DNA from: an uncultured virus (IMG/VR IMGVR_UViG_3300015608_002806)
Lineage: Duplodnaviria; Heunggongvirae; Uroviricota; Caudoviricetes
Direction: 5' to 3' (one strand)
IMG/VR virus record: IMGVR_UViG_3300015608_002806
Length of the DNA: 64,000 nt
The position numbers and the translations under genes were made by a program. This document shows positions 3,683 to 45,445 of this stretch, piece by piece (the stretch's first letter is position 1; each line of letters opens with the position of its first letter). The notes beneath the pieces were generated by a model. The model ran no database searches, was not told where the DNA came from, and saw nothing but the letters and a program-made list of their open reading frames with translations.

Positions 3683-4069
3683 TTATTTGACTCTTATTCC
3701 ATTTTTCCAATATTCTTGTCTTGTTGTATTTCCATCTTCATTATATACAATAATGGCAGGACCATTATCGTTATGACGTTTACCGTTTATATACCATGAT
3801 TTATATGCAACATTTCCATTTTCATAATATGAAATATAAGCAGGACCGTTCTCATTATGACGTTCATTATTTATACACCATTCTTTGTATTGAATATTTC
3901 CATTTGAATCATATACAATAACAGCAGGGCCATTCTCGTTATGCCATTTATTATTTTCATTTTTCCATATTAATTCAATTGTATATCCATCATTATTTAT
4001 TTGTGACGGTGGATTATATTTAATTCCATCAATTATTGTGTCTATTTTATAGAATGTATTTATGATCAT
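3683..4069 (-). CDS. HNENGPA-repeat (MORN-variant-like) protein, 3 repeats (family A)
   Basis: 128 aa; conserved N-cap MIINT.YK.DTIIDGIKYNPPS, 28-aa repeats, C-cap QEYWKNG. Confidence 0.9.
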   Translation of the reverse strand: MIINTFYKIDTIIDGIKYNPPSQINNDGYTIELIWKNENNKWHNENGPAVIVYDSNGNIQYKEWCINNERHNENGPAYISYYENGNVAYKSWYINGKRHNDNGPAIIVYNEDGNTTRQEYWKNGIRVK

Positions 4070-4076
4070 TTATTTA

Positions 4077-4460
4077 TTAATTCCAATTATTAAAATTTAT
4101 ATCAAAATATTTCTCTATTTGATGAACAATCTCAGTCATATATTCATATATCGAATAAGAAAATCTGTTTCCATCTGAAATATATATACTATTTGCTTTG
4201 CTGTAGGATCTTTTGAAATAAAAGAATCCAATAAATCCTTGATCTTTAATGAAATTCTCAACCTTTATCCATTCTATAAGAATGTCTCCATTTTTGTGAA
4301 ATACAAATTTTGTTGGTAAATCTTTATTTAATCTTTCTTTATTTTGATCATTTACAAATGTGAATCTTGTAAATTTTGGACAGCTATAAACATCAATTTC
4401 CTCATTTGATAATATTGGGTGTTGAAGTTGTAATATTTTTTGTTTTGTATTTATTTTCAT
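4077..4460 (-). CDS. Divergent M(K/I)INT...YFDIN family protein (family B)
   Basis: Starts MKINT; LPTKFVFHKNGDILIEW; ends KYFDINFNNWN. Confidence 0.8.
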   Translation of the reverse strand: MKINTKQKILQLQHPILSNEEIDVYSCPKFTRFTFVNDQNKERLNKDLPTKFVFHKNGDILIEWIKVENFIKDQGFIGFFYFKRSYSKANSIYISDGNRFSYSIYEYMTEIVHQIEKYFDINFNNWN

Positions 4461-4931
4461 TTATTTAATTTTTATTCCATTTTTCCAATATTCTTGTCTT
4501 ATTATGTTTCCATCTTCATCATATCCAATAATAGCAGGACCATTCTCGTTATGACATTTACCATTTATATACCATGATTTATATGAAACATTTCCATTTG
4601 AATAATATCTAATAACAGCAGGACCATTCTCGTTATGCAATTTATCATTTATCCACCATGATTTATATTTAACATTTCCATTTTCATCATATCCAATACG
4701 AGCAGGACCATTCTCGTTATGCCATTTATCATTTATCCACCATGATTTGTATTCAATATTTCCATTTAAATCATATACAATAACAGCAGGACCATTCTCG
4801 TTATGATATTTATTATTTTCATTTTTCCATATTAATTCAATTGTATATCCATCATTATTTATTTTCGATGGTGGATTGTATTTAATCCCATCAATTATTG
4901 TGTCTATTTTGTATAATGTATTTATGATCAT
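4461..4931 (-). CDS. HNENGPA-repeat protein, 4 repeats (family A)
   Basis: 156 aa; same caps and 28-aa repeats. Confidence 0.9.
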   Translation of the reverse strand: MIINTLYKIDTIIDGIKYNPPSKINNDGYTIELIWKNENNKYHNENGPAVIVYDLNGNIEYKSWWINDKWHNENGPARIGYDENGNVKYKSWWINDKLHNENGPAVIRYYSNGNVSYKSWYINGKCHNENGPAIIGYDEDGNIIRQEYWKNGIKIK

Positions 4932-4932
4932 T

Positions 4933-5283
4933 TTATTTATCCCATTTATTGAAATTTATATCTAAATAATTTTCAGTTTTGTTTTTGAATATTTGATCGC
5001 CAATAATATATTCATATTCACAAAAAAATTCATCATCATTTGATTTGGGATTATATATTTGAACATAATTGCATTTGTCTTGTCCTCTTTCAATATATTT
5101 TCCCGCTTTAAACCAAAGAAGTGCTATTAATTCATAATGACTTTCTTGTTCTATTCTTATAATAGATGGCTTGTTTGTGTCTATTTTATTATTATTGATA
5201 ACAATTATATCTGAGATAGGATGAAATTTTACATCCATTCCAGATAATAATTCATATGTTTTTGATGTTGTGTTTATTATCAT
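4933..5283 (-). CDS. Divergent M(K/I)INT...YFDIN family protein (family B)
   Basis: Start moved to MIINT at 5283 (ATGA overlap with the upstream stop); ends NYLDINFNKWDK. Confidence 0.78.
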   Translation of the reverse strand: MIINTTSKTYELLSGMDVKFHPISDIIVINNNKIDTNKPSIIRIEQESHYELIALLWFKAGKYIERGQDKCNYVQIYNPKSNDDEFFCEYEYIIGDQIFKNKTENYLDINFNKWDK

Positions 5284-5681
5284 TGTTCTGTATTCCAAAA
5301 TTGATAATTTATATCAAAATAATCCTCTGATACTGTCATCACCACTGTTGGTTTGTCTGCTGTTCCTTCTCTTATTTCATATATATATTTATTAATGTTT
5401 TTAAAAATACAATTTGGTTGATTTGGATTTTTTCGAGCTACGTATTTCACACCTTTCCACCAATAATCAGCAGGAATTCCTGGTGACATCCAAGACAATG
5501 AAACAAGTCCATTTGTACCAAAAACAAATACTGTGGGTAAATCTTGAAACAATCTTTGTTTTGTTGTTTCAGGATTAAATTTACACAAAGATACACTATC
5601 AATATTTTTTATTTGTAAACCTGGAATGGAAGATATATTATAATATATATTATTTATTTTATTTAATGTATTGATCAACAT
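5280..5681 (-). CDS. Divergent M(K/I)INT...YFDIN family protein (family B)
   Basis: Start moved to MLINT at 5681; LPTVFVFGTNGLVSLSW and QPNCI motifs; ends EDYFDINYQFW. Confidence 0.78.
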   Translation of the reverse strand: MLINTLNKINNIYYNISSIPGLQIKNIDSVSLCKFNPETTKQRLFQDLPTVFVFGTNGLVSLSWMSPGIPADYWWKGVKYVARKNPNQPNCIFKNINKYIYEIREGTADKPTVVMTVSEDYFDINYQFWNTEQ

Positions 5682-6030
5682 CTTTTTCAGCAACATCCTT
5701 TTGTTCTAAAACAAATCCACTTTTATCAAGCCAATATATTTTGTATACATTGTTTTCATCATCAAAATAAATTCTATTTGGTTTATTGTTTGATCTTATG
5801 TGATACATATCGCCATCAAACCATTCAATATTTATAATTTTTCCTAAATTAATATTAAATTCAACTATTGTCGGCCTATCATAATAAAAAAATATTTGCA
5901 TTTGTTCTTTATATGTTAAGAAATCAATATATTTTTTTTCTCCTGCTCCTGATATTTTAATATTCATTCTGCTAAACATATCTGTGTTATACATGATTCC
6001 AAATGTTTTTTTAAAGGTATTTATTTTCAT
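5659..6030 (-). CDS. Divergent MKINT family protein (family B, lacks YFDIN tail)
   Basis: Starts MKINT; RPTIVEF...GKIINIEW and KPNRIYF motifs. Confidence 0.75.
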   Translation of the reverse strand: MKINTFKKTFGIMYNTDMFSRMNIKISGAGEKKYIDFLTYKEQMQIFFYYDRPTIVEFNINLGKIINIEWFDGDMYHIRSNNKPNRIYFDDENNVYKIYWLDKSGFVLEQKDVAEKDVDQYIK

Positions 6031-6326: not shown

Positions 6327-6339
6327 AATTTTATCTCAT

Positions 6340-6726
6340 TTATTTAATTTTTCTTCCATTTTTCCAATATTCTTGTTTTCCTATATTTCCATTTGAATAA
6401 TATCTAATAACAGCAGGGCCATTTTCGTTATGTAGTTTGCCATTTATACACCATTCTTTGTATTGAATATTTCCGTTTTCATAATATGCAATAAAAGCAG
6501 GACCATTCTCATTATGACGTTCATTATTTATACACCATTCTTTGTATTGAATATTTCCATTTGAATAATATTGAATAAAAGCAGGACCGTTATCATTATG
6601 ATTTTTATCATTTTCATTTTTCCATATTAATTGAATTATATATCCATTATTAATTGTTTGTGATGGTAGATTGTATTTAATTCCATCAATTATTGTATCT
6701 GTTTTGTAAAGTGTATTTATGATCAT
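6340..6726 (-). CDS. HNENGPA-repeat protein, 3 repeats (family A)
   Basis: 128 aa; same caps and repeats. Confidence 0.9.
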   Translation of the reverse strand: MIINTLYKTDTIIDGIKYNLPSQTINNGYIIQLIWKNENDKNHNDNGPAFIQYYSNGNIQYKEWCINNERHNENGPAFIAYYENGNIQYKEWCINGKLHNENGPAVIRYYSNGNIGKQEYWKNGRKIK

Positions 6727-7062: not shown

Positions 7063-7067
7063 TTTTT

Positions 7068-7391: not shown

Positions 7392-7403
7392 TTTTTATTT
7401 TTC

Positions 7404-7706
7404 CTATTTAATCTTTATTCCGTTTTTCCAATATTCTTGTCTTATTATGTTTCCATCTTCATCATATCCAATAATAGCAGGACCATTTTCGTTATGTTCT
7501 TTACCATTTATATACCATGATTTATATTCAACATTTCCATTTGGATAATATTCAATAAAAGCAGGACCATTCTCGTTATGACATTTACCATTTTCTTTTT
7601 TCCACATTAATTCAATTACATTTCTGTAATTATTTATTTGTGATGGTGAATTGTATTTAATCCCATCAATTATTGTGTCTATTTTATATAATGTATTTAT
7701 TTTCAT
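7404..7706 (-). CDS. HNENGPA-repeat protein, 2 repeats (family A)
   Basis: 100 aa; same caps and repeats. Confidence 0.9.
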   Translation of the reverse strand: MKINTLYKIDTIIDGIKYNSPSQINNYRNVIELMWKKENGKCHNENGPAFIEYYPNGNVEYKSWYINGKEHNENGPAIIGYDEDGNIIRQEYWKNGIKIK

Positions 7707-8639
7707 TTATTTAATTCCGCTTTTTCTAAGTAAATTATTCATTGGATTATTCTTATTTGAAGGCTCAAAAGAATCAGCGTTTAACAAATCATGCGTGATC
7801 GAATCAGTAATTTCACCAGAGCGAATTGGATTTTCTATTGTTTGCGTTGGATTATCTGAAAATTCACCCTTGTTTACAACAAAACTTCTATTTAAACCAT
7901 ATGGGAAAATAATATCGGCTTGGCCTCCATCATTTGAATTTCCTGATGCTGAAGAGTCATCAAAACCTAATTGATGATTATGTAATACTCTATATGATAT
8001 TTGTATTTCAATTATCTTTGGATACATTGACAAAGCATCTCCTTTATCTGTTGCTTGACCTTGTTTTGTCATTCTATCAATATATCCACTATTAACTTCA
8101 ACATAGGTACCATATTGTAATAACATTTGAACGTTAAATCCACCATCAATAAAACCATACAATCCACCACCAGTTTTAACATCTTGTATTAAATTACCAA
8201 ATTTCAATCTTAACAACGGGGCTGCTTTAATGTCTGATATAGAGAGATTAGAAAAATTTTCTCCATTTTTAATTTGATATCCTGTTGTTGAAATTTTTGG
8301 ATACAAAAAATTTGTTAACATACTTATTTTTCTAAGATTTTCTCTAGCTGATTGTAAATCATGAGCTGGAATTCTCCATGTTAAATTGTATTTTCTTCTT
8401 GTTTTGGAAAAATTATAAATACCATCCATTTTTCCCCAAACATCTTCACTTTCCCAATCACTTTCATATTGGTCACTCATTGATTCGAGCATTGCCCAAA
8501 ACTCAACGGTTGGAACCCCATTGCTTGTTGATTTTTCTTGAATTGAATTAACATATTCAAATCTCAACAAAGCCATTCCTTCTTCGTGTGCTCTAATATA
8601 ATTTAAATCAAGATTCGATGATGATGTGTGTTTTGCCAT
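7707..8639 (-). CDS. Putative tail tube initiator / baseplate-tube junction protein
   Basis: Directly downstream of tape measure; tube-fold-like motifs (W...DVWGKMD.IY.F..T.R, APLLRLKFGNL, PKIIEI.ISY). Confidence 0.6.
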   Translation of the reverse strand: MAKHTSSSNLDLNYIRAHEEGMALLRFEYVNSIQEKSTSNGVPTVEFWAMLESMSDQYESDWESEDVWGKMDGIYNFSKTRRKYNLTWRIPAHDLQSARENLRKISMLTNFLYPKISTTGYQIKNGENFSNLSISDIKAAPLLRLKFGNLIQDVKTGGGLYGFIDGGFNVQMLLQYGTYVEVNSGYIDRMTKQGQATDKGDALSMYPKIIEIQISYRVLHNHQLGFDDSSASGNSNDGGQADIIFPYGLNRSFVVNKGEFSDNPTQTIENPIRSGEITDSITHDLLNADSFEPSNKNNPMNNLLRKSGIK

Positions 8640-11086
8640 TACAAATTGCTCCTACCGGAGACTGGATTAATATTATTAAGTTCTTTTAATGCAACCTTTC
8701 CAACTTCACGACCATCAATTTCAAGAGAAATTGATTGATTGGATTTATTGTTGGACAATGCATTCAATATAGATGACATATTTTTAATCAATTCAGCCAT
8801 TTGTGAATTGTCATTTGTTTTTGTGTTTGCTAATGTTATTATTTCTTTGTTTATTTCTTTAAATTTTTCAATATTTTCACTCTTTACTTGAGATACACCT
8901 TGTATTGTATTTCCAAGACCCGAAAGGAACACGCTCATTGCAGGGTTGACACCAGTTAGACTCAAAGAAGAAATTTGTTCAAACATTTTTGAAGCATTTT
9001 CCAAAGAATCATCAGAGATTGAACTAAATGATTTTGAAAAAGAACTAGCAACTTTTGTAATTGAATCAGCCAATTTACTCATTTTTGGTTCATAATCAGC
9101 CATGCCAACAATCTGCTTCATCATTTCAATTCTTTGTTTTTCTTTTGATAAACCAGAAAAACCTTCATCAACCTCTTTAATTGCTTTACCAAATCCCCAA
9201 ATAGCAAGAGATATCAACCCAATTGAAGCAGCTGCATAAAAAGCACCCTGTAGAACATTGTAAGTTATTGCTTTTAATGCTCCAGCTATTTTTGAAACCA
9301 ATTTAGAAAATCCAGAACCAACTTTATCTGCAACGTTTACAACCACTTCTCCTGTGGCTTCAATTGGTTTTTTTAATCCCTTTAATTTATCGATGAATCC
9401 AGAAAAAAATGAAAATATTTTTCCTTTGAACATCATTACAATTAATCCAACAGTAATCAATCCAGTTCCGTATCCATGAGTAATTTTATCAAGCAACAAG
9501 AAAGCATCAGCAATCCATCCAATAACAGTCACAATTGGTCTAACAACCACAGCAAATGCTCTCATTATTGCCTGCAATTTTTCCATTATACTAGCAGTAT
9601 CGGCAGCTCTTTCTCTTGCTTCTTCCTCTGAAACCGCATTTGCCATCAAAGATCTTCTGTAGTCCTCCAAGGAACCAGTAAATATCTTGGTTGCAGTTTC
9701 CATGTTGGAAATACCAGCAGCATTGGCTACTGCTTGTTTTTCTTGTGCATTCAATGCTGTCCACACTTTACCAGAGGCATTAAACATTTTAATTAAAGTT
9801 TCAACCCTTTCATTTTCGCTCATTTTCATCATTTGAATCGTGTTCAAATAAGGGCCACCCAAAATAGCATTCAATCTGGCCACTTTGGGAACCGCTTCAT
9901 CAAAAGAATCGTAACCAGCAACAACATCAAGAAGCTCAGAAGTTTCGAGCCTCAATGATTTTGCTTGTGCTGTTAATTTTAAAAAAACATCCTTTGCTGA
10001 TTCGCCTCTTTTAACCAATTTTGGCATTGATTCATTGAAATCAGAAACAGCTTTGGTTAAAGTGATACCAAGAGAATCAGCCATGCCTCTTAATTGAGAA
10101 TTGAATTTCTTGACTCCTTCATCGCTAGTCTTCAGTGTTTCTTTTAATATTGATACTTCTTTAGCGTAATCATTTGTTGAAACACCTAATTTTTCCATTA
10201 TTATAGCAGAATTCAAATATGTTTTTTGTTGCTCTTCACTCAACAAAGAAAATGATTTAAATTCTGTCAATAAAGACCTAACAGAAGACGCAACATCTTC
10301 AGCTGAAACAGCAAGATCTCTATTGTTCTCATAAGCTGAAAAAATTAAATCATTGTGTTTTCCAATAATTCCTGTTGATCTCTCAAATGAATTAATAGCA
10401 GAATCCCACGCAATAACTTGTGCATAAGTTGATTCTATTGTTTTTGAAAAAACATTATCCAACAAATTAAGTGGATTAAATAATTTTTTAATGGTTTCAA
10501 TGGTGTTCAAAACAGCCATTGAAAATGCCGGTATTGTTTCTGTGGCTCCTTCTTGTAATGGTTTAAAGAAAGATTGAAACATTGAATTGCTTCTGTCCTC
10601 AACAAGCAAAACTCGGCTAACAAAGCTCTTAACGCTGCTCTCTTGTTCTTGAGAAAGTTTTTTTAATGCTTCTAAATTTTCAGTGGAAAGAGCAAGCTTT
10701 TTTTCGTTTTGTAGATTTTCTGCTCTTAATCTTGCAAGCTCATTATCAGCGTTTTGTTTTTTTTCATTTGCATCGTCAGCTTCATCCTTAACAAGATCCT
10801 CAAGTATCTTTCTTTGTTCGAGCATTGCTTTATTGGTTGCAATAATTTTTCTTCTTAATTCTATATTTGAATCCAATTGATTTTGATAATATTCACCAGC
10901 TGTACGACTCAATCTTTCAATAACTTCATCATTTTTAAAACCATTATTCATGTTATCAATAAATTTATTTGTTTCTTGAATGATGTTATTTATTTTTTTA
11001 AATTCTGTTTGAACAGTTTCGCTATATTCTTTAACAGATTCTGTTAATTCATTAATTAAAGCTTTTTGTTCATTATTGATATCCAT
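8639..11086 (-). CDS. Tape measure protein
   Basis: 815 aa, helical and Ala-rich, with hydrophobic segments and a C-terminal ISLEIDGREVG motif; follows tube and chaperone genes. Confidence 0.82.
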   Translation of the reverse strand: MDINNEQKALINELTESVKEYSETVQTEFKKINNIIQETNKFIDNMNNGFKNDEVIERLSRTAGEYYQNQLDSNIELRRKIIATNKAMLEQRKILEDLVKDEADDANEKKQNADNELARLRAENLQNEKKLALSTENLEALKKLSQEQESSVKSFVSRVLLVEDRSNSMFQSFFKPLQEGATETIPAFSMAVLNTIETIKKLFNPLNLLDNVFSKTIESTYAQVIAWDSAINSFERSTGIIGKHNDLIFSAYENNRDLAVSAEDVASSVRSLLTEFKSFSLLSEEQQKTYLNSAIIMEKLGVSTNDYAKEVSILKETLKTSDEGVKKFNSQLRGMADSLGITLTKAVSDFNESMPKLVKRGESAKDVFLKLTAQAKSLRLETSELLDVVAGYDSFDEAVPKVARLNAILGGPYLNTIQMMKMSENERVETLIKMFNASGKVWTALNAQEKQAVANAAGISNMETATKIFTGSLEDYRRSLMANAVSEEEARERAADTASIMEKLQAIMRAFAVVVRPIVTVIGWIADAFLLLDKITHGYGTGLITVGLIVMMFKGKIFSFFSGFIDKLKGLKKPIEATGEVVVNVADKVGSGFSKLVSKIAGALKAITYNVLQGAFYAAASIGLISLAIWGFGKAIKEVDEGFSGLSKEKQRIEMMKQIVGMADYEPKMSKLADSITKVASSFSKSFSSISDDSLENASKMFEQISSLSLTGVNPAMSVFLSGLGNTIQGVSQVKSENIEKFKEINKEIITLANTKTNDNSQMAELIKNMSSILNALSNNKSNQSISLEIDGREVGKVALKELNNINPVSGRSNL

Positions 11087-11100
11087 TTATATTTTCCCAC

Positions 11101-11109
11101 ATAAATAGC
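11101..11109 (-). promoter_or_regulatory. Candidate late-promoter motif CTATTTA upstream of tape measure
   Basis: GCTATTTAT on the minus strand ~15 bp before ATG; the same core occurs before the sheath gene and the 26773 gene. Confidence 0.35.
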
Positions 11110-18959: not shown

Positions 18960-19275
18960 TATAATCCTTTATAAATAATTTCCAAATATCTAAAAAATTT
19001 TTAATATTACATTCGTCGCTTTCGTAGTATTCTTGATTGTTTAATTTATAATTAATATTATCCCCATTTCTGTTTATAATTAAACTTGAACCATTTTCTA
19101 AATTCCAAATTATTTCAAAAATCCAACCCCTATCGTAGAAACAATCTTTATTTTGTTTTTTCCACTTTCCAGAAATATTATAATTTAATCTATCTGGTTC
19201 TATCCAAATCAATCCAGCGGATTCAACTATTGATTGAAATCTATAAATACAATCATTTATAACATTAATTATCAT
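18952..19275 (-). CDS. Hypothetical protein
   Basis: 107-aa ORF overlapping both neighbours' stop/start. Confidence 0.65.
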   Translation of the reverse strand: MIINVINDCIYRFQSIVESAGLIWIEPDRLNYNISGKWKKQNKDCFYDRGWIFEIIWNLENGSSLIINRNGDNINYKLNNQEYYESDECNIKNFLDIWKLFIKDYNG

Positions 19276-21794: not shown

Positions 21795-21803
21795 ATTTGG
21801 GTA

Positions 21804-22742: not shown

Positions 22743-22776
22743 TTTTTAATTCTCCTGTATTAATTATATGATTTTT

Positions 22777-24869: not shown

Positions 24870-25420
24870 TTAATTCTTGTTCCATTTTCCCAATATTCTT
24901 GTCTTATTATGTTTCCATCTTCATCATATCCAATAATAGCAGGACCATTATCGTTATGATATTCATCATTTATAAACCATGATTTATGTTTAACATTTCC
25001 ATTTGGATAATATTCAATAATAGCAGGACCATTTTCGTTATGTTCTTTACCATTTATATACCATGATTTATATTCAACATTTCCATTTGGATAATATCTA
25101 ATAACAGCAGGACCATTATCGTTATGACATTTATCATTTATCCACCATGATTTATATTCAACATTTCCATTTGGATAATATCCAATAATGGCAGGACCAT
25201 TTTCGTTATGTTCTTTACCATTTATATACCATGATTTATATTCAACATTTCCATTTGGATAATATCTAATAACAGCAGGACCATTCTCGTTATGATATTT
25301 ACCATTTTTATTTCTCCATTCTAATTCAATTGCATATCCATAATTAACTAATTCCGATGGTGGATTATATTTAATTCCATCAATTATTGTATCTGTTTTA
25401 TATAATGTATTTATGATCAT
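24866..25420 (-). CDS. HNENGPA-repeat protein, 5 repeats (family A)
   Basis: 184 aa; same caps and repeats. Confidence 0.9.
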   Translation of the reverse strand: MIINTLYKTDTIIDGIKYNPPSELVNYGYAIELEWRNKNGKYHNENGPAVIRYYPNGNVEYKSWYINGKEHNENGPAIIGYYPNGNVEYKSWWINDKCHNDNGPAVIRYYPNGNVEYKSWYINGKEHNENGPAIIEYYPNGNVKHKSWFINDEYHNDNGPAIIGYDEDGNIIRQEYWENGTRIK

Positions 25421-30061: not shown

Positions 30062-30631
30062 TTAAACCATTAAAATGTCATTCATTAATCTAAATATTTT
30101 TTCTGTTTTGGGTGTATATATTTTTGATTCTTTTATCATGAAAGCACCTGATGTACTTGGTTCTTGTACAAGATCGAAGCAAATTAAACGATAATCACTG
30201 TTTACAACAATTGTATCACCCTCTGTTGTGGTTGAACCAAATCCACGAGATGAAATACCAAGAGTTATGCCATCTTCAATTAATGCTTGTGCCTCTTTTC
30301 CTTTGCTAGTGTTTAGTAATTTAATTTTGCCACAAACATCATCACCATCCCACCAAATTTTTTCGACAACATGAGAAGCATCGGCTAAATTCACAGAAAG
30401 ACTTGACGGATGATCAAGAGCACCCAACGCTCTTTTTTCTTGAATTAATAATTGATAATTTTCTATTTCTCTTAAAAGAACTTTTTTTTCATAAATTCTT
30501 CCATTGCCATTTTTAACATTTGCTCTTTGCATAACACCAGAAAGATAAATATTTTGTTTTTTTGTTACAGGATCTGTTTCTTTAACAATGCTAGATGGAT
30601 CTATTTTTACATATTCTAAAAGAGGTTCCAT
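30062..30631 (-). CDS. Prohead core protein protease (T4 gp21-like)
   Basis: NGNGRIY, ALGALDHP, ASHVV, LGISSRGFGS, FDLVQEPST.GAF. Confidence 0.93.
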   Translation of the reverse strand: MEPLLEYVKIDPSSIVKETDPVTKKQNIYLSGVMQRANVKNGNGRIYEKKVLLREIENYQLLIQEKRALGALDHPSSLSVNLADASHVVEKIWWDGDDVCGKIKLLNTSKGKEAQALIEDGITLGISSRGFGSTTTEGDTIVVNSDYRLICFDLVQEPSTSGAFMIKESKIYTPKTEKIFRLMNDILMV

Positions 30632-30897: not shown

Positions 30898-31224
30898 TTA
30901 TTCCTCTTCTTTGTTTATTTTTTTACCATTTTTCCAATATTCTTTGTTTATTATTGAACCATCTCTTCTGTAAAGAATAAAAGTAGGACCGTTTTCATTG
31001 TGCAAAAATCCTTCAGAATTATACCATTTTTTTAAAAGAACTTGCCCTGTTTTATAAAAATGTATTATTGATGGTCTATTTTGTTTTATAAATTTTTCTT
31101 TATTTAAATATTCTTGATCTTTAAAATCTACCATAATAGCGTTTTCTGTTGTAGAAACGCTTCCTTCAATATAAGACAATCCACTATATATATTATCAAT
31201 TTTTAAAAAAGTAAGTATATTCAT
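30898..31224 (-). CDS. Divergent single-repeat HNENGP protein (intermediate between families A and B)
   Basis: RPSIIHFYKTGQVLLKKW followed by LHNENGPTFILY...KEYWKNGKKI. Confidence 0.8.
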   Translation of the reverse strand: MNILTFLKIDNIYSGLSYIEGSVSTTENAIMVDFKDQEYLNKEKFIKQNRPSIIHFYKTGQVLLKKWYNSEGFLHNENGPTFILYRRDGSIINKEYWKNGKKINKEEE

Positions 31225-31249: not shown

Positions 31250-31804
31250 TTATTTAATTTGTTTTCCATTTTTCCAATATTCTTGTTTTGTTATTTTTCC
31301 ATTTCCATCATATTCAATAATGGCAGGACTATTCTCATTATGGCGTTTACCATTTATGTACCATGATTTGTATTTAATGTTTCCACTTGAATAATATGAA
31401 ATATAAGCAGGACCATTCTCATTGTGGCATTTACCATTCACAAACCATGATTTATATTCAATATTTCCATTTTGATCATATCTAATAATAGCAGGACCAT
31501 TTTCATTATGCAGTTTATTATTTATCCACCATTCTTTATATTTAACATTTTTATTTTCATCATAATAAATAACAGCAGGGCTATTTTCATTATGGCGTTT
31601 ACCATTTATGCACCATTCTTTATATGAAACATTTCCATTTTGATCATATTGAATAACAGCAGGACCATTTTCGTTATGATGTTCACCATTTTCATTTTTC
31701 CATATTAATTCAATTGAATATCCATCATTATCTATTTCCGATGGTGGATTGTATTTAATCCCATCAATTATTGTATCTGTTTTATAGAATGTATTTATGA
31801 TCAT
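31250..31804 (-). CDS. HNENGPA-repeat protein, 5 repeats (family A)
   Basis: 184 aa; same caps and repeats. Confidence 0.9.
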   Translation of the reverse strand: MIINTFYKTDTIIDGIKYNPPSEIDNDGYSIELIWKNENGEHHNENGPAVIQYDQNGNVSYKEWCINGKRHNENSPAVIYYDENKNVKYKEWWINNKLHNENGPAIIRYDQNGNIEYKSWFVNGKCHNENGPAYISYYSSGNIKYKSWYINGKRHNENSPAIIEYDGNGKITKQEYWKNGKQIK

Positions 31805-31806
31805 AA

Positions 31807-32292
31807 TTATAAATTATATCCATAAAATGTGTCACTATATGTTGAATATCTTGGCATTGTTCCATCTTCTGATTTTTGAGGTATTTCTCCTAATTCTGTT
31901 GAATTTTCATCAGATGGATCTGTTAATTCATCCTCAAATTCTTCTTTTCCTTGCATTGCTCTGTTGTAATATTCTTTTTCAATAACCAAAAATTCATATA
32001 ATGTTTTAAGAACAACATTTAACGCTTTTAACTCTTTAGAATCTGCATATGTCGCTTCTGTACTTTTATAAACAGCCCCACCTCTAACTGAGGCTGGATC
32101 CACCAATCCTTTTTCAACAAGAAAATCAAACATTTTTTTTGAAGCTAAAAATATTTCCTCATCAATCTTTTCTGCTTTTGGTGTTGTTAAGATTTTATTT
32201 GATTGTGGTGATACAAAAATCAAAAGTTTTGGATGATCATATATAATTAAATTATTGTCAAGAGTTTTTCTTATATTTAATTTAATTTTCAT
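31807..32292 (-). CDS. Hypothetical protein (head region)
   Basis: 161 aa with acidic C-terminus STELGEIPQ. Confidence 0.7.
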   Translation of the reverse strand: MKIKLNIRKTLDNNLIIYDHPKLLIFVSPQSNKILTTPKAEKIDEEIFLASKKMFDFLVEKGLVDPASVRGGAVYKSTEATYADSKELKALNVVLKTLYEFLVIEKEYYNRAMQGKEEFEDELTDPSDENSTELGEIPQKSEDGTMPRYSTYSDTFYGYNL

Positions 32293-32675
32293 TTAATTCT
32301 TATTCCATTTTCCCAATATTCTTGTCTTATTATGTTTCCATCTTCATCATATCCAATAATAGCAGGACCATTTTCATTATGCAATTTATCATTTATATAA
32401 CATTCTTTATATGCAACATTTCCATTTTCATCATATTCAATATAAGCAGGACCATTTTCATTGTGGCATTTACCATTTGCGCACCATAATTTATATGAAA
32501 TATTTCCATTTGGATAATATGAAATAATAGCAGGACCATTGTCGTTATGTAAATTATTATTTTGATTTTTCCATGTTAATTCAATTGATTGTCCATAATT
32601 AAATATTTTCGATGGCGGATTGTATTTAATCCCATCAATTATTGTGTCTGTTTTGTATAATGTATTTATGATCAT
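32289..32675 (-). CDS. HNENGPA-repeat protein, 3 repeats (family A)
   Basis: 128 aa; same caps and repeats. Confidence 0.9.
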   Translation of the reverse strand: MIINTLYKTDTIIDGIKYNPPSKIFNYGQSIELTWKNQNNNLHNDNGPAIISYYPNGNISYKLWCANGKCHNENGPAYIEYDENGNVAYKECYINDKLHNENGPAIIGYDEDGNIIRQEYWENGIRIK

Positions 32676-33728
32676 TTATTTATTAAAAAGTTTTTTATAC
32701 AAAATAACAGCTTCATGTTCGTCTGCTAAATTTTTTTCACACATTTGACTATAATAATGAGGGTTTTCTGTTAAATGATCTGCAACAATTTCTTTTACAA
32801 TTTGCAAATTCTTTGTATGTTCTTTTTCAATTATTTGACCTATTTGCACCTCTCTCTGGTCAAAAGATTTTAAATTTTTATTATCACCAGCACCACCTGG
32901 AACAACATCTTCTTTTATTTCTGATACGAGAAGTTGTGTTTTTAATAATGTTTCAATCATTTTTTCTGATATATTTTTTGTTTTTTTAAAAGACGATAAT
33001 TTTTCTATGATTTGATCAAATTTTTCAGAAAACATTTGATTTTCTTTAAAAATTAAATTATTTCTATTTTTTGAAATAAAATCACAAATATTTAAAATTT
33101 CTTCATTTAAATAAATAATAAAATCTGCTGTGTTCTCTCCAAAAGAACCAATGTATTTTGAAATAAGTTTTTTTTGTTCTGGCAATAATTCTTTATATTT
33201 TTTATTAAATTTTTCTGTTAATTTCATAAATACAATATTGTCAATATAATCAAGTTCTTGATTTTCAGATTTTAATTTTTCTTCAAATAATGGTAAAATT
33301 TTATTTGTAATATTTAATCTCTCTGTTAAAGATAATGAATCATCAAGATACGAATATAAATTCATTAATATTTTATATTCTGGAACAAAGGAAGAAAATA
33401 CATTTTGGCCAAATTTTTTATCTATATCTGATAATAGTTTTGTTTGTTCGTTGAAAATTTTTGTTTTATTAAACTTTTTATATTCATCTTTAGCTATTTC
33501 TAATATTTTTTGATTTGAAAAAGAATCTTTATTTTTAAAATTATCTTTATATGATAAAATTTCAAAATAAAGATTTATTTCTTTGCCCAATTCAGTATTT
33601 TCACCAAAATACTTAGAAAACATTTCAGAAATTTCATTGTGTTTTGAGATATTTCCATTTAAAAAAGCTTCAGATTGTTCTCTCAAAAGAATTTCAAAAA
33701 CAATAAATGTATTTCTTTTTTTATTCAT
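32676..33728 (-). CDS. Portal-adjacent hypothetical protein with C-terminal DUF5661-like domain
   Basis: Likely start MNKKRNT at 33728; KFNKKY..L..EQK.L...YI; C-terminal EKEHT...EIVADHL.ENPHYY. Confidence 0.65.
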   Translation of the reverse strand: MNKKRNTFIVFEILLREQSEAFLNGNISKHNEISEMFSKYFGENTELGKEINLYFEILSYKDNFKNKDSFSNQKILEIAKDEYKKFNKTKIFNEQTKLLSDIDKKFGQNVFSSFVPEYKILMNLYSYLDDSLSLTERLNITNKILPLFEEKLKSENQELDYIDNIVFMKLTEKFNKKYKELLPEQKKLISKYIGSFGENTADFIIYLNEEILNICDFISKNRNNLIFKENQMFSEKFDQIIEKLSSFKKTKNISEKMIETLLKTQLLVSEIKEDVVPGGAGDNKNLKSFDQREVQIGQIIEKEHTKNLQIVKEIVADHLTENPHYYSQMCEKNLADEHEAVILYKKLFNK

Positions 33729-36700
33729 CTTCGTTTCCGTCCTCTTTCTTTGGCGTATAATTATCTTCCAGATATTTAACAAAAGAATTTTGTATATTAT
33801 TTTTTATAATTATACTCTTATTTTCATTTATTAAAGTCATTGTCTTTAAAATATCATTAACTTCATCATCTTGCTTATTATTTTCTGGAATTATGCCCAT
33901 TGAAAGAGATTTAAGACCCATTGCGCCCTGGAATACATTGCGATAATTGTTTGAACTAGCCATTTGATTATATTTGGATTTTAATTGTTTGACTCTTGGA
34001 ACGGATGATTGTCTAGAATCATGACCAACTTTTGTGTACGCTTTTCCATTTGCGTTTGGGCTCATATACGTTTCATTTCTCTTTGCTTCGTTCCCTGTTT
34101 TTGTTTCAATGTCAGAACCAGATTCGCCACCAACATCAGCTTTTAGTTGTTCTATTTCATCCGCTGAAGGTGATGCCATCAATGTGTCTGATGTTGGACC
34201 TGTTGAATCTTCAGGTTCAGAAATACCAGCAGAGGCAAAGTCATCACTAGGCATTCCGCCGCCAGCAGGACCACCACCATCTGATGTGTTCATTTCTGAT
34301 AATTGTTGCATCAAAATTTCTCTCTTTATATCAGAGAACAATCCACTAATTTGTTCTTGTATTTCAATATCAGACATACCAAAAATTTTCTTATAAATGT
34401 ATTCTTTTGAGAAAAATCCTTCTGCTAATGAAGAAGCAACCTCTGATCTGAGTCTGAGGTGCTCCAATTCTTGCATTTCAGCAATTTTGCTTGGATTATT
34501 AAGTTTAATGTCAAAATCCAATAAATCTTTGCCTCTAAATCCAATTGCCCACAAATGAATTGTTGCAATCTTTTTTAATTCAGCAACAATTGAATTTTGG
34601 ATTCTCATAATTGTTTTACCAAACATGAGATCTTTTTGAGCAAGAGACATCTTGTCTTCAACTGTGTCAGATTGGGCAAGATAAGCTCCAGGAATCTTGA
34701 GGCCCGAGAACAATTTATCTTTAAAATACTTTATGTCATCAATTGCATCAACGAGCTGACCAGATTGAAGTGTGTCAATTTTTGTTGGTGAATCTTTACC
34801 GCGTACTGGGAGGTAGAAATCTTTCTCAATTGAATTGGTAATTAATAGTCCTGACTTGCTTATTGTCCCATCATTACAATGAGTTAAAACAGCAAAGTTG
34901 TGTCTGTCTTGTTCTCCATTTGGTCCCTCGACCGTCATACAATAAACATCTTCTTGTTTTTCTAAAATTTCTAGTTTTTTCACTTTGTGATTTATTACAC
35001 GACCACCACCAGGAAACTCCATATCTGGTTTGATTTTTTTGTAAAAATCTCTGTAATCAGAAAAACCATATTTTTGAATAATTGATCTAATTTTTGCCCT
35101 GTGAACTGATGTAAATTTTTTGACATTATTGTTGAGTTTAAGTATTAAATCATTAAAATATTTATCATTTGTCAAAATATCACAAAGTTTTTCAACTGAA
35201 ATATAACTATCAGAATTTTTGATTATATCTTGGATATAATTTAAAACATCTTCATTAAAGTTGAAGCTCATTTTTTGGCGGGTTTTTGTTGTATCGCCCT
35301 TCCAAAAATCTTTTTTTAATTCGCTTCTAATTTTATTATGTTCTTTATGAAGATCTGAATTATTATAATCAATAATATATTTTTTAAGATTAAGTGATGG
35401 ATATCTTTCCTTTGATGCTTTTGAATGGGCTTCGGATTTATTCCATTTTATAATGTTTTGTTTTCCAATTTGTGCATGGTATTCACTGTGTTCTTTGTTT
35501 GTCATCCATTCTAACAATGATGGATCATTATTTAAAGCATCAAAAGGTTTTTCTTTTGTTCCTTTATGGTGTATTACCAAAAAATCACCTTCATTTTTTA
35601 TATCTTGTTTCTTAATTTCTTTTTCTTTTGACAAAACATCATTAGCCACAAATCTATGAGTAAAAATATATTTTCCTTCTTTTGGATCATAAACTTTGTA
35701 ATATTGTTTTTTATTTTGGTTACTGTATTTTTCTTGCTCTCTATAAAAAGGCATTAATGAATCATTTTCTTTTAATTCATCAGCTCTAACTTTGGTCCCA
35801 TCTCTTAGAATAAATGGATGTTCTGGTGCTGAATCAATATATGTATCATCATCCAAAACAACTCTAATTAATTTGTTTGCTGTATAGTTTTTTCCACACC
35901 AAACAACCTTTCCTGGCAGGAGATTGTGTTGTTTGTCGTGAATTGAATGAACCCAATTTGTTTTGCCAGAATCATATTCTTTTGCTAATTCTTCAATTGT
36001 AATATTTCTTCCGTCCAACAAAGGAATAATTGAATTTTTAGAGATGGGAAAGGTTGGATTGTAACGTCTGTCAGCTCTTCCTGTTTCTGTATCAATAATG
36101 GTATTTTCTTTTATGTTTGATATAATTTTATTAATATAACTTTCAACATCTTCTGGTGCTATTGATGCAACATCAATATAAAAAACACGTCTTTCGCTAC
36201 TGCGAACCATTCTATACCCAATAACATAATTTTCCATTAAATCTAGTTGTCGCCAAATTCTTCTAATGCCATTTAATACAGAAATTCCATATGGAAGATA
36301 TTTGTCATCACCAAGAATTCTAAAATGAGCAACCTGCCAATTTTCAAAAGCCTGTCCGCCAGAATTCCATTGGAATCTTACATAATTAGGATTTTTTTCA
36401 TCTAAACCCTCCATTCTTTCAATTTCAGAAGGTCTAAATCCTATAAAAGAAGTAATACCAATTTTTTCTTCAATATTAAAATAAATGAAAAGATCACCCA
36501 TTTTACAAAGCGAACGAACCCATGAAAAAAGATTATCATGCACATTTAATATATTATAAAACAAATGATTTAGATTATCTTTAATTTCATCATTATTGGT
36601 TAATATTTTAACCATTGGAGAAAATTCAGAATATGCTGTTATTTCAGATGCATAAATGTCCAAAGCACTGGATACTTCTGGTGAACTAAGATCTATTGTT

Positions 36701-36999
36701 TCAAATTCCATGTAACGCTCAAGTCTTCCCATTTGAGCAACAGATCTTGTATAAAGATAGTCTATTGGGCTTGAAGATGAAGATTTCTTAAATGGCAATC
36801 CACCAGCTGAAAAGAATTTATATTTATTTAAATCTTTTCTCTTGTTTAGTAATGGATGTGGTGTTTTATAATTAGCCAACCCACCACTTAACAATCTTGT
36901 CAGATCTTTATATAGTTTATGTTGTGGATTATAGGGATTATCAGCAACTTGTGGTTTTTTTGCTTTTTCGTTAAAGTATCTTGATTTAATTGGTGGCAT
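33721..36999 (-). CDS. Portal protein (T4 gp20-like) containing an intein
   Basis: PEVSSALDIYA, WQVAHFR, LPYG.S.L, YRMVRSSERRVFYIDV, DFYLPVRG, IDDIKYF..KLF.GLKIP. Confidence 0.93.
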   Translation of the reverse strand: MPPIKSRYFNEKAKKPQVADNPYNPQHKLYKDLTRLLSGGLANYKTPHPLLNKRKDLNKYKFFSAGGLPFKKSSSSSPIDYLYTRSVAQMGRLERYMEFETIDLSSPEVSSALDIYASEITAYSEFSPMVKILTNNDEIKDNLNHLFYNILNVHDNLFSWVRSLCKMGDLFIYFNIEEKIGITSFIGFRPSEIERMEGLDEKNPNYVRFQWNSGGQAFENWQVAHFRILGDDKYLPYGISVLNGIRRIWRQLDLMENYVIGYRMVRSSERRVFYIDVASIAPEDVESYINKIISNIKENTIIDTETGRADRRYNPTFPISKNSIIPLLDGRNITIEELAKEYDSGKTNWVHSIHDKQHNLLPGKVVWCGKNYTANKLIRVVLDDDTYIDSAPEHPFILRDGTKVRADELKENDSLMPFYREQEKYSNQNKKQYYKVYDPKEGKYIFTHRFVANDVLSKEKEIKKQDIKNEGDFLVIHHKGTKEKPFDALNNDPSLLEWMTNKEHSEYHAQIGKQNIIKWNKSEAHSKASKERYPSLNLKKYIIDYNNSDLHKEHNKIRSELKKDFWKGDTTKTRQKMSFNFNEDVLNYIQDIIKNSDSYISVEKLCDILTNDKYFNDLILKLNNNVKKFTSVHRAKIRSIIQKYGFSDYRDFYKKIKPDMEFPGGGRVINHKVKKLEILEKQEDVYCMTVEGPNGEQDRHNFAVLTHCNDGTISKSGLLITNSIEKDFYLPVRGKDSPTKIDTLQSGQLVDAIDDIKYFKDKLFSGLKIPGAYLAQSDTVEDKMSLAQKDLMFGKTIMRIQNSIVAELKKIATIHLWAIGFRGKDLLDFDIKLNNPSKIAEMQELEHLRLRSEVASSLAEGFFSKEYIYKKIFGMSDIEIQEQISGLFSDIKREILMQQLSEMNTSDGGGPAGGGMPSDDFASAGISEPEDSTGPTSDTLMASPSADEIEQLKADVGGESGSDIETKTGNEAKRNETYMSPNANGKAYTKVGHDSRQSSVPRVKQLKSKYNQMASSNNYRNVFQGAMGLKSLSMGIIPENNKQDDEVNDILKTMTLINENKSIIIKNNIQNSFVKYLEDNYTPKKEDGNEDE
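34834..36048 (-). mobile_element. Intein (~405 aa) with HNH homing endonuclease, class 3-like
   Basis: Block A PISKNSIIPLLDG, block B APEHPF, HNH (HRFVA...IHHK...NN...L...EH..YH), block F DVYCMTV..HNF, ends ITN/S; N-terminal junction uncertain by 1 codon. Confidence 0.88.
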
Positions 37000-40439: not shown

Positions 40440-40445
40440 TAATTA

Positions 40446-41937: not shown

Positions 41938-43760
41938 TATACACCTCTTGCTATATGTTTAAATTTATTAAATTTTGAAGCTAAATTGGATTCAGAATCA
42001 AATTTATTTTTTGCAAAATTATTATATCCTTGCAATGGAGTGGTTGGAGTATAAAAAGATTTGTAAAACCCTTGCCACAAATCTTGCGACATATCTGAAA
42101 AGAATGTATTTTTTGTGTCTTCTAAATATTTTTTAATCTCTTTTTTAAGTTCTATAAATTCATTTGGTTGAACTGGTATTCTGTTTTCGATATTATCAAT
42201 AACAAAATCAGATGGATGATATTGTTGATTATATTTGTTAATATAATATTTAACTAAATTATTATATCTATAATATAAAATTTTTCTACATTTTTCTAGT
42301 TTTTGATCAACCTCATCAACAAATGATTCATCAAAATGATCAACGAATTTATTTAATGAATCTTGTACAAAAGAAACAACAGCTAAAATTGGTTCACATG
42401 TTTGATCTTTTGCTTTTTGTGTAATATCATCAACCATTTTTAATTTTTCTCTGAAAAAATTAGGAACACCACCTGTTTCTTTATAAGATTGATGCATTTT
42501 TTTTCTAAATTCAAAAATGTTATTGTTAAATTTATTATTTATATTTTGTGCAAATAAAATAATTTGTTCATTGAATTTAATTTTTTCATCAGTTGTCAGC
42601 AATGGAGCTGAACCGTTTACCCAATTGTCATATCTTGATTTATCTTTATATCTAACATCATTTTGAATTTTATTAAAAATTGTATCTTGTATTGTTGAAG
42701 TAAAGCTATATAAATCTTTTAAATAAGAATTACAAATATCTATAATTCTACCATGAGAAACATTTTCCGCAGCAATTCTGGTTGATTTTTTATCATATTT
42801 TTGTTTTAAATATTTTTCAAAAGATAAAACAATATGAGAAATTTTATTTAAATTTTCTTTAATTGCTTTTACTTGAAATGCAAAAGTGTCTGGCGTGGAT
42901 GAATCACCGCGAGCAGATAAAACAAAATCAACGATATCTTTATTTTCTGCTAGTGCTTGTTGTGTGCTTAAAATTATAGTATTTAAATTAGAAGTAATTT
43001 TATTTTTAATAGTTTTTAATGCCAATTGTAATTTGTGGTCTGATTTAAATAAATGTTTATATTTTTCTTGAAAATAAGAAACATAATGTTCTTTAATTGT
43101 CAGAGATATATTTGCGATATATGAATCATCTGTTATGTTTTCAGGCAAAAAAACTTTTTCATATAAAATAACAAATTTTTTCCACAGTTGATTAACTTCA
43201 ACATCTGATAATAAAAAGTTTTTTTTAATAATTTTACCAATTTCAATATTCATTTCAGAAATAAATTTAGGAAATTCATTGCTTCTAATTCTATTAAGAA
43301 GCTTATTGTTGTATACTTGTTGATGCCTTAATGCTTTTTTGATTGCCGAAATTGAACCCTTTAAACTAACTGTTGTTCCATCGCCGTTCCAATATTTATG
43401 TAAAGAATAATAATATTCATTTATTAGATTAATTTGAGCATTTATCTCTGGAGAACAATGTGTCATTTGTGTTCTATTGTGTTTTATAAAGGTTGAAAAT
43501 TGTTCGGGAAGATTAAAGTCTTTTAAATATAAATCTCTAATTGTCTTAAACCATTCATTTTCAGCTCCTGCACTATCATTTTGATCGCTTTTTGGATCAA
43601 TTATTTTTTCAATTCTTTTACCAAATGTTTGGAAAAGTCTAGTTAGTCTTCTTAGAATATATTCAATAGCTTGAGGTTCATTTTTTGCTAAAATTTCACC
43701 ACGAACCTCAAATAACAATTGTTCTTGAATTATTTTTAAAATTTCTTTTTTTGAAAGCAT
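41937..43760 (-). CDS. Large helical hypothetical protein, possibly head-internal
   Basis: 607 aa; N-terminal KKEILKIIQEQLLFE motif. Confidence 0.7.
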   Translation of the reverse strand: MLSKKEILKIIQEQLLFEVRGEILAKNEPQAIEYILRRLTRLFQTFGKRIEKIIDPKSDQNDSAGAENEWFKTIRDLYLKDFNLPEQFSTFIKHNRTQMTHCSPEINAQINLINEYYYSLHKYWNGDGTTVSLKGSISAIKKALRHQQVYNNKLLNRIRSNEFPKFISEMNIEIGKIIKKNFLLSDVEVNQLWKKFVILYEKVFLPENITDDSYIANISLTIKEHYVSYFQEKYKHLFKSDHKLQLALKTIKNKITSNLNTIILSTQQALAENKDIVDFVLSARGDSSTPDTFAFQVKAIKENLNKISHIVLSFEKYLKQKYDKKSTRIAAENVSHGRIIDICNSYLKDLYSFTSTIQDTIFNKIQNDVRYKDKSRYDNWVNGSAPLLTTDEKIKFNEQIILFAQNINNKFNNNIFEFRKKMHQSYKETGGVPNFFREKLKMVDDITQKAKDQTCEPILAVVSFVQDSLNKFVDHFDESFVDEVDQKLEKCRKILYYRYNNLVKYYINKYNQQYHPSDFVIDNIENRIPVQPNEFIELKKEIKKYLEDTKNTFFSDMSQDLWQGFYKSFYTPTTPLQGYNNFAKNKFDSESNLASKFNKFKHIARGV

Positions 43761-44975
43761 TTACGAATCCAAAGTCAATTTAAAACAATATGACTCATTT
43801 TCTTTTTTAAGAATTGGTGTTGCTAATTTAGCAACAGCATAATGTTTTTTGTCAGCATTGTAAAGATTTATATAAGATATAAATGTTTGTTTTTGAAATT
43901 TATTATATTTTTCTTCAGACCATGAAGCAGATGGAATATTTTTAATTAATAAATTATCATTTTCACAAAATGAATATTGTGTATAGCTGGCACTTAATGT
44001 TTGTTGTCCCCACTCTATATATGATGGATTGGTTGTACTATTAAGTTTTCCAGCAGGAGCTTTGCAAAAAATTGTTTTTGTATTAATTGTTGTGGTTCCT
44101 CTGAACTTAATATAATAATCTGAATAATTTATATCTGTGTCTGTTAGTGATGATGGTGCTGCTCCAAAGTGATATGGGTTTAAACGACTATCTGGGCCTT
44201 GGGAGCCTTCATAGTAAAAATATTCTGTATCAAGATCGACAGTTTCAAAAAATAAAAACGTACCTTCATCATATAAAACCATTCCCATAGTGCTTCCTGT
44301 ATATGATGGATTATATAATGAATAAGTTAATCTTAATAATCCATCGCCATATAAATCTTCTGCTGTTGCCACTAATTTTTTATTTGCATAAAAAGATAAA
44401 TAAGTAGATTTTTTTTGAATAGATGAACCAAAATATGCCCTTGGCAACATCAGCACAGTAAATCCATATGTATACAAATAATTAATAACACTTTCATGAT
44501 CAATAAGTGGAAAAAAAGAACCACTATATGCAAAAAATGCATTATTAAATTTCCATAAATTTTTATATTTTAATATTGAATTTTTTAAGGCTGTAAATTT
44601 AACATATAAAGAAGAATCACTAACTAAATCATATTGAGGTCTTAAATACCATCTTTGATGTTTTAATTGAGACAAATAGGATCCTGTAACCAAATCACCA
44701 TATTCAATATTGTTTTCATTATTTGGTGATGACATAAATCCAACCAAATCTGATGTTTTGGGCGACAATGGGTAAATTATTTGATCTGCATTGTCTCTGC
44801 GAACGGTTCCACCATTAATTGGATAAACAATAATTGAAGATGTTAAAACAGATGGCGCTTCTTCAATTTTTCTATCAACATAAACACCTGATTGCATAAT
44901 TGCAATCTCTTTTAAGGGATTAAGTTCAATTATGTTATCATAAATATCATCATCTGTAAATTTAAAATATGACAT
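43761..44975 (-). CDS. Baseplate / tail-associated structural protein
   Basis: C-terminal IFC....LN.TTNP...FISYINLY......AVAKL.TP.LK domain, paralogous to 46346..47362. Confidence 0.65.
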   Translation of the reverse strand: MSYFKFTDDDIYDNIIELNPLKEIAIMQSGVYVDRKIEEAPSVLTSSIIVYPINGGTVRRDNADQIIYPLSPKTSDLVGFMSSPNNENNIEYGDLVTGSYLSQLKHQRWYLRPQYDLVSDSSLYVKFTALKNSILKYKNLWKFNNAFFAYSGSFFPLIDHESVINYLYTYGFTVLMLPRAYFGSSIQKKSTYLSFYANKKLVATAEDLYGDGLLRLTYSLYNPSYTGSTMGMVLYDEGTFLFFETVDLDTEYFYYEGSQGPDSRLNPYHFGAAPSSLTDTDINYSDYYIKFRGTTTINTKTIFCKAPAGKLNSTTNPSYIEWGQQTLSASYTQYSFCENDNLLIKNIPSASWSEEKYNKFQKQTFISYINLYNADKKHYAVAKLATPILKKENESYCFKLTLDS

Positions 44976-45445
44976 TATTTAATTTTTATTCCATTTTTCC
45001 AATATTCTTGTTTTATTATATTTCCATTTTGTTCATATTCAATATAAGCAGGACCATTGTCGTTATGTAATTTATCATTTATATACCATGATTTATATGC
45101 AACATTTCCATTTGGATAATATTCAATAAAAGCAGGACCATTCTCGTTATGACGTTCATTATTTATCCGCCATTCTTTGTATTGAACATTTTTATTTCGA
45201 TAATATTGAATACAAGCAGGACCATTCTCGTTGTGATATTTACCATTTATGCACCATTCTTTATATAAAACATTTCCATTTTGATCATATTGAATATAAT
45301 CAGGGCCATTTTCATTATGATATTCACCATTTTCATTTTTCCATTGTAATTCAATTGTATATCCATCATTATTTATTTGTGACGGTGGATTATATTTAAT
45401 TCCATCAATTATTGTATCTGTTTTGTAGAATGTATTTATGATCAT
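44975..45445 (-). CDS. HNENGPA-repeat protein, 4 repeats (family A)
   Basis: 156 aa; same caps and repeats. Confidence 0.9.
   Translation of the reverse strand: MIINTFYKTDTIIDGIKYNPPSQINNDGYTIELQWKNENGEYHNENGPDYIQYDQNGNVLYKEWCINGKYHNENGPACIQYYRNKNVQYKEWRINNERHNENGPAFIEYYPNGNVAYKSWYINDKLHNDNGPAYIEYEQNGNIIKQEYWKNGIKIK

Follow-up and report, generated by a model that had tools for sequence, protein, structure and literature searches.

In MORN-repeat proteins, the aromatic residues that belong to the motifs YEGEW and LxY stack in a groove of the hairpins that is able to bind partners, as set out in the accessible text of PMC7725318. Expansions of MORN2-domain proteins in Fusobacterium and Helicobacter comprise many paralogs with variable repeat number, and the portion of PMC4222103 available to us proposes recombination between the repeats as the source of their diversity. 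In amoebal giant viruses, families of repeat-domain proteins (ankyrin, MORN, FNIP and leucine-rich repeat) are thought to act via protein-protein interaction, according to the available part of PMC5753266. Here, we describe a dispersed family of genes built of 28-residue units in a 64,000-nucleotide stretch of DNA from an uncultured virus (IMG/VR record IMGVR_UViG_3300015608_002806), which is referred to as the window at its full length. These genes probably constitute a multigene family of small, signal-less MORN-type repeat proteins that diversifies by ordinary means.

The canonical family consists of eight minus-strand genes, each encoding a 41-amino acid (aa) N-cap, one to four internal units of 28 aa and a 31-aa C-terminal unit. 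The genes are 3683-4069 (128 aa, two internal units), 4461-4931 (156 aa, three internal units), 6340-6726 (128 aa), 7404-7706 (100 aa, one internal unit), 24866-25420 (184 aa, four internal units), 31250-31804 (184 aa), 32289-32675 (128 aa) and 44975-45445 (156 aa), and are named below by their first coordinate. Tandem Repeats Finder (TRF) reports indel-free arrays with a period of 84 nucleotides (nt) in seven of the eight, among them 3683 (array at 3728-3956), 4461, 6340, 24866 and 32289. In 24866, an internal two-unit duplication of 168 nt with a 95-nt exact match is observed, which TRF detects as a 168-nt super-period of 92% identity. The eight genes together hold 29 units with an average identity of 77%. 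One more recognizable unit (LHNENGPTFILYRRDGS...EYWKNGKKI) is present in a divergent minus-strand member, 30898-31224 (108 aa), which was matched in a tblastn-type search; this bears out the 30 units counted in an earlier reading made from the letters of the DNA, termed here the sequence-only reading.

Blocks of sequence are common to distant copies in a patchwork fashion. The block NGNIQYKEWCINNERHNENGPA is found in 3683 and 6340, YYPNGNVEYKSWYINGKEHNENGPAIIGY in 7404 and 24866, IQYDQNGNV.YKEWCINGK in 31250 and 44975, and IIGYDEDGNIIRQEYW in 4461, 7404, 24866 and 32289; each occurs in exactly the genes for which the sequence-only reading had listed it. The first three lie at an equal residue offset in both carrier genes and are therefore positionally homologous rather than scattered. 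At the DNA level the blocks show 0-1 nt differences in 48-87 nt, whereas the 123-nt N-terminal regions of the same gene pairs are 81-92% identical. The longest exact tracts measure 95 nt (within 24866), 83 and 75 nt (7404 versus 24866) and 70 nt (24866 versus 32289). Between 7404 and 24866 the N-cap is 82.1% identical and unit 1 is 95.2% identical, and this ranking is reversed between 3683 and 44975, with 93.5% for the N-cap and 77.4% for unit 1. In the terminal unit, 4461, 7404, 24866 and 32289 make up a group of 91-95% identity that has no counterpart in the N-cap, and the nearest paralog of 44975 is a different one for every segment.

Tests of recombination point in the same direction. The pairwise homoplasy index (PHI) test on the N-cap, unit 1 and terminal unit gave p = 0.0015 and 0.0005 with two window sizes, and on the alignment of units p = 0.0005 with the small window; the larger one gave 0.004 for all units and 0.15 for internal units. 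In approximately unbiased (AU) tests, the trees of the terminal unit (0.0075) and of unit 1 (0.040) are rejected on the N-cap data, and those of the N-cap (0.003) and the terminal unit (0.001) on the unit-1 data; on the terminal-unit data, the unit-1 tree is rejected (0.032) and the N-cap tree is kept (0.074), so that five of the six cross-tests reject. The distances in the N-cap and in the C-terminal unit are uncorrelated (Mantel r = -0.16). Gene conversion or recombination among dispersed copies, as proposed in the sequence-only reading, is thus supported by the PHI and AU tests and by near-identical blocks beside diverged N-caps, and exchange between paralogs on top of gain and loss of units is the best reading of these alignments.

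The structure of the unit was approached with an AlphaFold2 (AF2) model of the 31250 protein, for which an alignment of 70 sequences gave a predicted local distance difference test (pLDDT) score of 92.5 and a predicted template modelling (pTM) score of 0.84. In each modelled unit, DSSP places two strands, at positions 9-12 and 18-22, with a turn of five residues (13-17) between them; after the second strand come a break at W23, a mini-hairpin (24-25, an NG turn, 28-1) and then the HNENGPA loop. The top 16 ranks in Foldseek are all occupied by MORN proteins (MORN1, junctophilin and radial-spoke proteins) with E values of 5e-6 to 1e-3, probabilities of 0.99-1.00 and TM scores of 0.26-0.45; a search of the PDB by sequence found no solved structure. 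As modelled, the unit is a MORN-type beta hairpin whose connecting loop is longer than usual by about five residues, and YKxW and IxY take the roles of the YEGEW and LxY aromatic ladder.

Variability was counted over the 29 units, with column 1 being the residue before HNENGPA. Columns 2, 3, 5, 7, 10, 12 and 26 are invariant, and the most variable ones are columns 19 (9 residue types), 11 (8), 1 (8), 14 (7), 9 (6) and 24 (5). The sequence-only reading had singled out columns 1, 9, 11 and 24; all four are variable and its residue lists for 9, 11 and 24 are correct, but the phenylalanine that it gave for column 1 is absent from the 29 units, and columns 14 and 19, which are equally variable, had been omitted. 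Strand alternation and hairpin pairing in the model suggest that columns 9, 11 and 19 point away from I10, Y12, V18 and Y20, that column 14 lies at the tip of the hairpin, and that columns 24 and 1 are opposite one another in the mini-hairpin. The proposed clustering on one face of a beta-sheet would hence apply to columns 9, 11 and 19, opposite the ladder, and not to columns 14, 24 and 1 in the turns and the mini-hairpin.

The ratio of replacement to synonymous differences (pN/pS) pooled over the units is 0.93 by simple counting, with strongly biased synonymous sites, and the global ratio of replacement to synonymous rates (omega) is 0.356 under GY94+F3x4. For individual columns, custom per-site likelihood code was used that matches the likelihood of IQ-TREE. 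With a fixed synonymous rate, omega is 4.25 at column 1, 3.5 at column 14, 2.3 at column 11, 2.2 at column 19, 2.05 at column 24 and 1.2 at column 9, and it exceeds 1 at p < 0.05 in 100% (column 1), 88% (11), 84% (14), 68% (19), 40% (24) and 8% (9) of 25 resampled topologies. When the synonymous rate is left free at each site, the positive columns are only 11 (p = 0.013), 14 (p = 0.024) and 19 (p = 0.021). In ten independent closest pairs of units, pN at the six variable columns is 0.240 against an overall pS of 0.093 (Fisher p = 0.0009). The variable codons keep the third base and vary in the first two: column 9 is NNT, columns 14 and 19 are NNA, and column 11 is NNA in 28 of the 29 units. 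We also note that synonymous change is unevenly distributed, being concentrated in the invariant HNENGPA codons (columns 1-8) and at the unit junction (columns 24-27), where the synonymous rate (alpha) reaches 18, and being zero in the central strand codons; this unevenness may reflect exchange boundaries inside the units. DNA of related copies for the selection tests was sought in viral contigs, which gave only this phage and three distant contigs, and in metagenome and genome collections, where no match was found; no orthologue-based dN/dS is given for this reason.

These observations would fit three processes. One would be the in-register gain and loss of 84-nt units, including the two-unit tandem duplication. 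Homologous recombination or gene conversion between dispersed paralogs would leave near-identical DNA blocks in genes that are otherwise diverged. Replacement would also be faster at a few strand and turn positions that face away from the aromatic ladder (I10, Y12, V/I18, Y20 and W23). At columns 11, 14 and 19, the codon alignment gives moderate evidence of replacement above the synonymous rate; an omega above 1 at these columns, consistent in direction and statistically moderate, is plausible, not proven. On this reading, selection, rather than relaxed constraint, would drive the variable residues.

Several points weigh against this reading. A stricter recombination test, which used only the N-cap and the C-terminal unit so that unit indels could not confound it, is marginal at p = 0.07, and 'unit 1' is perhaps not positionally homologous in every gene. 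With the synonymous rate free, no column is significant after Bonferroni correction over 28 columns. Diversifying selection had been proposed for columns 1, 9, 11 and 24 alike; column 11 is indeed positive, but columns 9 and 24 are consistent with an omega of 1 (alpha at column 24 is 5.2 in the free-rate test), and the synonymous rate of column 1 is equally raised, with alpha of 8-18 and 17.9 in the free-rate test. Units re-cut in shifted phase, to the block boundaries, give a similar picture with weaker p values, and only column 11 remains below 0.05. The site tests are based on 28 codons and a poorly resolved tree, in which high bootstrap is confined to the C-terminal-unit clade, and recombination within units, as suggested by the PHI test on units, is known to inflate such tests. 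The assignment of faces derives from strand alternation and conservation parity in the DSSP pattern. Columns 9, 11, 14 and 19 are also the most variable ones in 173 units of distant relatives (Spearman rho 0.54), so that much of the pattern is common to exposed positions of this fold at large.

The alternative that structural constraint and a relaxed surface suffice, in which duplication, unit indels and neutral drift at exposed positions, with the scaffold positions held, produce the family with no diversifying selection, draws on this correlation with distant relatives, on the behaviour of columns 1, 9 and 24, and on the p values (0.01-0.09, nominal only) that the positive columns reach with a free synonymous rate. 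It is difficult to reconcile with point estimates that put omega at 2.2-3.5 for columns 11, 14 and 19 throughout the analyses, with a close-pair pN at the variable columns that is 2.6 times pS (the Fisher test given above), and with a third base that is fixed while the first two change among up to nine codons. We regard this account as possible but rather unlikely, and prefer diversification by unit turnover and paralog exchange with selection at a few columns.

The canonical genes were compared with other assemblies. In three of these, 9, 12 and 32 positions depart from the window sequence, all of them outside the 29 units. The eight canonical genes are all present in three contigs that were assembled separately, with four base differences, all in N-caps: K2I and I9T in 7404 (three bases at its 5' end, relative to two other assemblies) and L20P in 6340, which lies 7 nt from a contig end. 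All four go towards the paralog consensus. The units being identical in three assemblies, the canonical genes are not artefacts and are not changing over the time that separates the samples, although the assemblies show little divergence and the comparison has low power. Population-level assembly from donor cassettes of the variable lymphocyte receptor (VLR) type was considered as a candidate and set aside on the identity of the units in the three other assemblies.

Clustered differences were seen at other places. At 3347-3546, in the gene 3278-3682, another assembly carries 17 single-nucleotide polymorphisms and one extra codon (a 3-nt indel) in 200 nt, which amount to nine amino-acid changes, and the rest of the 17-kb overlap shows only a handful of differences; the variant stretch matches its own locus only, and no other paralog in the window was found as donor. 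All 12 differences between the window and the contig G002 fall in 232 nt (9239-9470) of the gene 8639-11086, which encodes an 815-aa tape-measure-like protein. The homologue P0003 is 98% identical to 32289-32675, and its only three changes lie within five residues of unit 2, at columns 11, 12 and 15, and take no fewer than 4 nt; a search of the available sequences yielded no donor.

The N-terminus is a further conserved feature. Five adjoining small MKINT/MIINT open reading frames (ORFs) on the minus strand are distant homologues of the canonical family (hhalign probability 83%, E 8.6e-6). Three are 'MKINT' relatives, namely 3278-3682 (134 aa, without canonical repeats), 4077-4460 (127 aa) and 5659-6030 (123 aa), and two are read from an internal ATG, 4933-5283 (MIINTTSK...) and 5280-5681 (MLINTLNK...). 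The window therefore holds at least 14 family members. The N-terminus M-x-I-N-T-x-x-K is kept in 13 of the 14 genes and is altered in 30898 (MNILTFLK), and residues 1-8 are more conserved than any other part, even in 'MKINT' relatives of 16% identity. Since the codons differ while the residues are kept, the N-terminus appears to be constrained at the protein level. Ten of the 14 genes start directly after the upstream stop (…AATAA ATG), without a Shine-Dalgarno-like sequence. Beyond the left end of the window, the contig G003 carries two more repeat genes with different N-terminal regions, at 19697-20269 and 20861-21311, one of which has a run of N within its repeats. A distant viral contig, G004, has at 4-4239 an open frame of at least 1437 aa filled with 28-aa units of the same kind, and the contig bears further frames of 200-394 aa with such units.

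T4 keeps its prohead-core genes between gp20 and gp21, and the T4-type prohead cleavage motif is L/I-x-E. Of the proteins encoded in the window, one is a T4-type portal (gp20) with an intein in it, and another is a prohead protease of the T4 type (Peptidase_S77 in Pfam, gp21-type, 30062-30631). In the portal gene, 33721-36999 (minus strand), the Pfam model Intein_splicing covers residues 325-693 and the Portal_T4 match is cut in two. A short N-terminal tag common to divergent proteins of the family thus occurs in a genome with a gp21-type protease, the combination by which T4-type internal proteins are recognized. This raises the alternative that the proteins are packaged as prohead-core or internal proteins like T4 IPI-III, with MxINT..K as a capsid-targeting tag and a variable face that engages host defence after ejection. 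Apart from the conserved residues 1-8 and their codon differences, it can draw on residues 1-10 lying outside the fold (pLDDT 52) and on three family genes between the gp20-type portal and the gp21-type protease. However, the cleavage motif is absent after the N-terminus in the sequences, which were read directly, and most family genes lie elsewhere, beside tail, baseplate and replication genes. Packaging in the prohead is doubtful on this balance. A fuller version, in which a phage-carried repertoire of capped MORN-type binders is kept diverse by paralog exchange and by selection opposite the aromatic ladder, and MxINT..K sends the proteins into the prohead for delivery with the DNA, where they would neutralise varied host defence or toxin proteins, is in our view improbable.

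Two mechanistic alternatives fare worse. Chimeric joins across repeated DNA could in principle make the patchwork an artefact of assembly; some database homologues on contigs of 500-800 bp do resemble chimeras of window genes (P0001 is 7404 with the end of 24866, and P0004 a three-unit 24866), and in one related assembly a further repeat copy contains a run of N. The concordance of three assemblies, with the four base differences in eight genes, and a longest exact repeat of only 95 nt at a mean unit identity of 77% make this very improbable for the window, and assembly chimeras there were rejected on the three concordant assemblies. In the variable columns, changes are limited to the first and second codon positions and the third base is fixed (NNT throughout column 9), which might recall writing by a diversity-generating retroelement (DGR). 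This mechanism, or other targeted mutagenesis, was rejected as most improbable, since columns 14 and 19 have an invariant third-position A, kept also by 28 of the 29 units at column 11, which adenine mutagenesis would randomise, the units are identical in three other assemblies, and scans of 50 proteins with PHROGs and of 35 with Pfam, covering about a third of the estimated genome, revealed no reverse transcriptase.

The source is a large AT-rich T4-like myophage. In addition to the portal and protease, PHROGs and Pfam identify a tail sheath, a tail tube, a baseplate hub, the large terminase (TerL) and a primase in the window, and, judged by the terminase, the closest cultured relatives are phages of Flavobacterium (35% identity). 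The viral contig G001 is 99.98% identical to positions 6662-51141 of the window and has a completeness estimate of 24%, from which a genome of about 185 kb is estimated. All long ORFs of the window are on the minus strand, and the GC content is about 25-35% except for a 46% island at the left end. This island, at 1-2100 within a phage of about 27% GC, contains ORFs that overlap on both strands (403-1332, plus; 637-1293, minus) and have no Pfam or PHROG match, and another assembly has 39 nt in place of the 79 nt at 2031-2109. Three successive proteins with Big_5 Ig-like domains (19272-23640) and two very large proteins of 1426 and 1184 aa with Laminin_G_3 domains (54669-62505) are probably tail or fibre components.

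With respect to described families, the Pfam model PF07661 (MORN_2) scores 30.0 bits on 24866, 29.1 on 32289 and 18.5-21.0 on the six other canonical proteins; its gathering score of 29.6 is reached by one of nine proteins, and 30898 gives no match. The repeat period is 28 aa (84 nt, indel-free) in all arrays, not the 22-23 aa of MORN_2. The family proteins have no match in PHROGs, NCBIfam or PADLOC, no YwqK family was found in NCBIfam at E <= 0.01 with five window proteins and three relatives, and Rfam and tRNA searches returned nothing informative. The repeat is widespread, with 478 proteins of near length and 16,488 cluster representatives at E <= 0.001, and the family is a large, mostly uncharacterised one. 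Among relatives that bear the repeat, some have a RING domain, a DUF4116 domain or an overlap with DUF6745; the nearest clusters in the ESM Atlas, most of them viral, bear the automatic names YwqK-family or MORN-variant. The phage proteins may be protein-binding modules made together with the late structural genes; going by the YwqK-like labels of the relatives, the likeliest guess for their targets would be proteins of host or phage that take part in conflict systems. The 28-residue MORN-like unit is thus very common, and many of its nearest clusters are viral, yet no Pfam model is dedicated to it and a search by sequence finds no solved structure. With its 14 or more copies, this phage provides a compact natural series of one to five units in which the caps are fixed and only a few positions vary; the series could serve to ask what the proteins bind and whether phages deploy them in conflict with their hosts.

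Among known systems, the MORN proteins (MORN1, MORN4 and junctophilins; PF02493) and bacterial MORN_2 (PF07661) resemble the phage units in being beta-hairpin repeats that form an elongated sheet, and differ in a period of 22-23 aa instead of 28, the excess being due to the longer connecting loop (HNENGPA). The Fusobacterium and Helicobacter MORN2 proteins, as far as the available text of PMC4222103 describes them, are bacterial, mostly have signal peptides and consist of 22-23-aa units; the phage proteins, in contrast, are small, have no signal peptide and possess a fixed N-cap and C-terminal unit. The likeness to YwqK-type immunity or antitoxin proteins (COG2849) lies in the source labels on relatives and in the names of the nearest ESM Atlas clusters; the difference is that the phage proteins have no NCBIfam match and no cognate toxin adjoining the repeat genes in the PHROGs and Pfam scans, the neighbours being structural, replication or unknown genes. 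The giant-virus families, in the accessible part of PMC5753266, are likewise virus-encoded multigene repeat proteins, although of eukaryotic viruses and of other repeat types and scale. Designed ankyrin repeat proteins (DARPins) and lamprey VLRs share with the phage family a capped scaffold, a variable number of internal units and variation at few positions per unit, whereas the phage copies have no somatic or programmed assembly, are stable across assemblies and adopt another fold. The earlier likening to a VLR- or DARPin-style library therefore holds for the architecture of caps and variable unit number and not for programmed diversification, of which none was found; the pattern is the usual one for repeat-protein multigene families rather than that of a new diversity-generating system.

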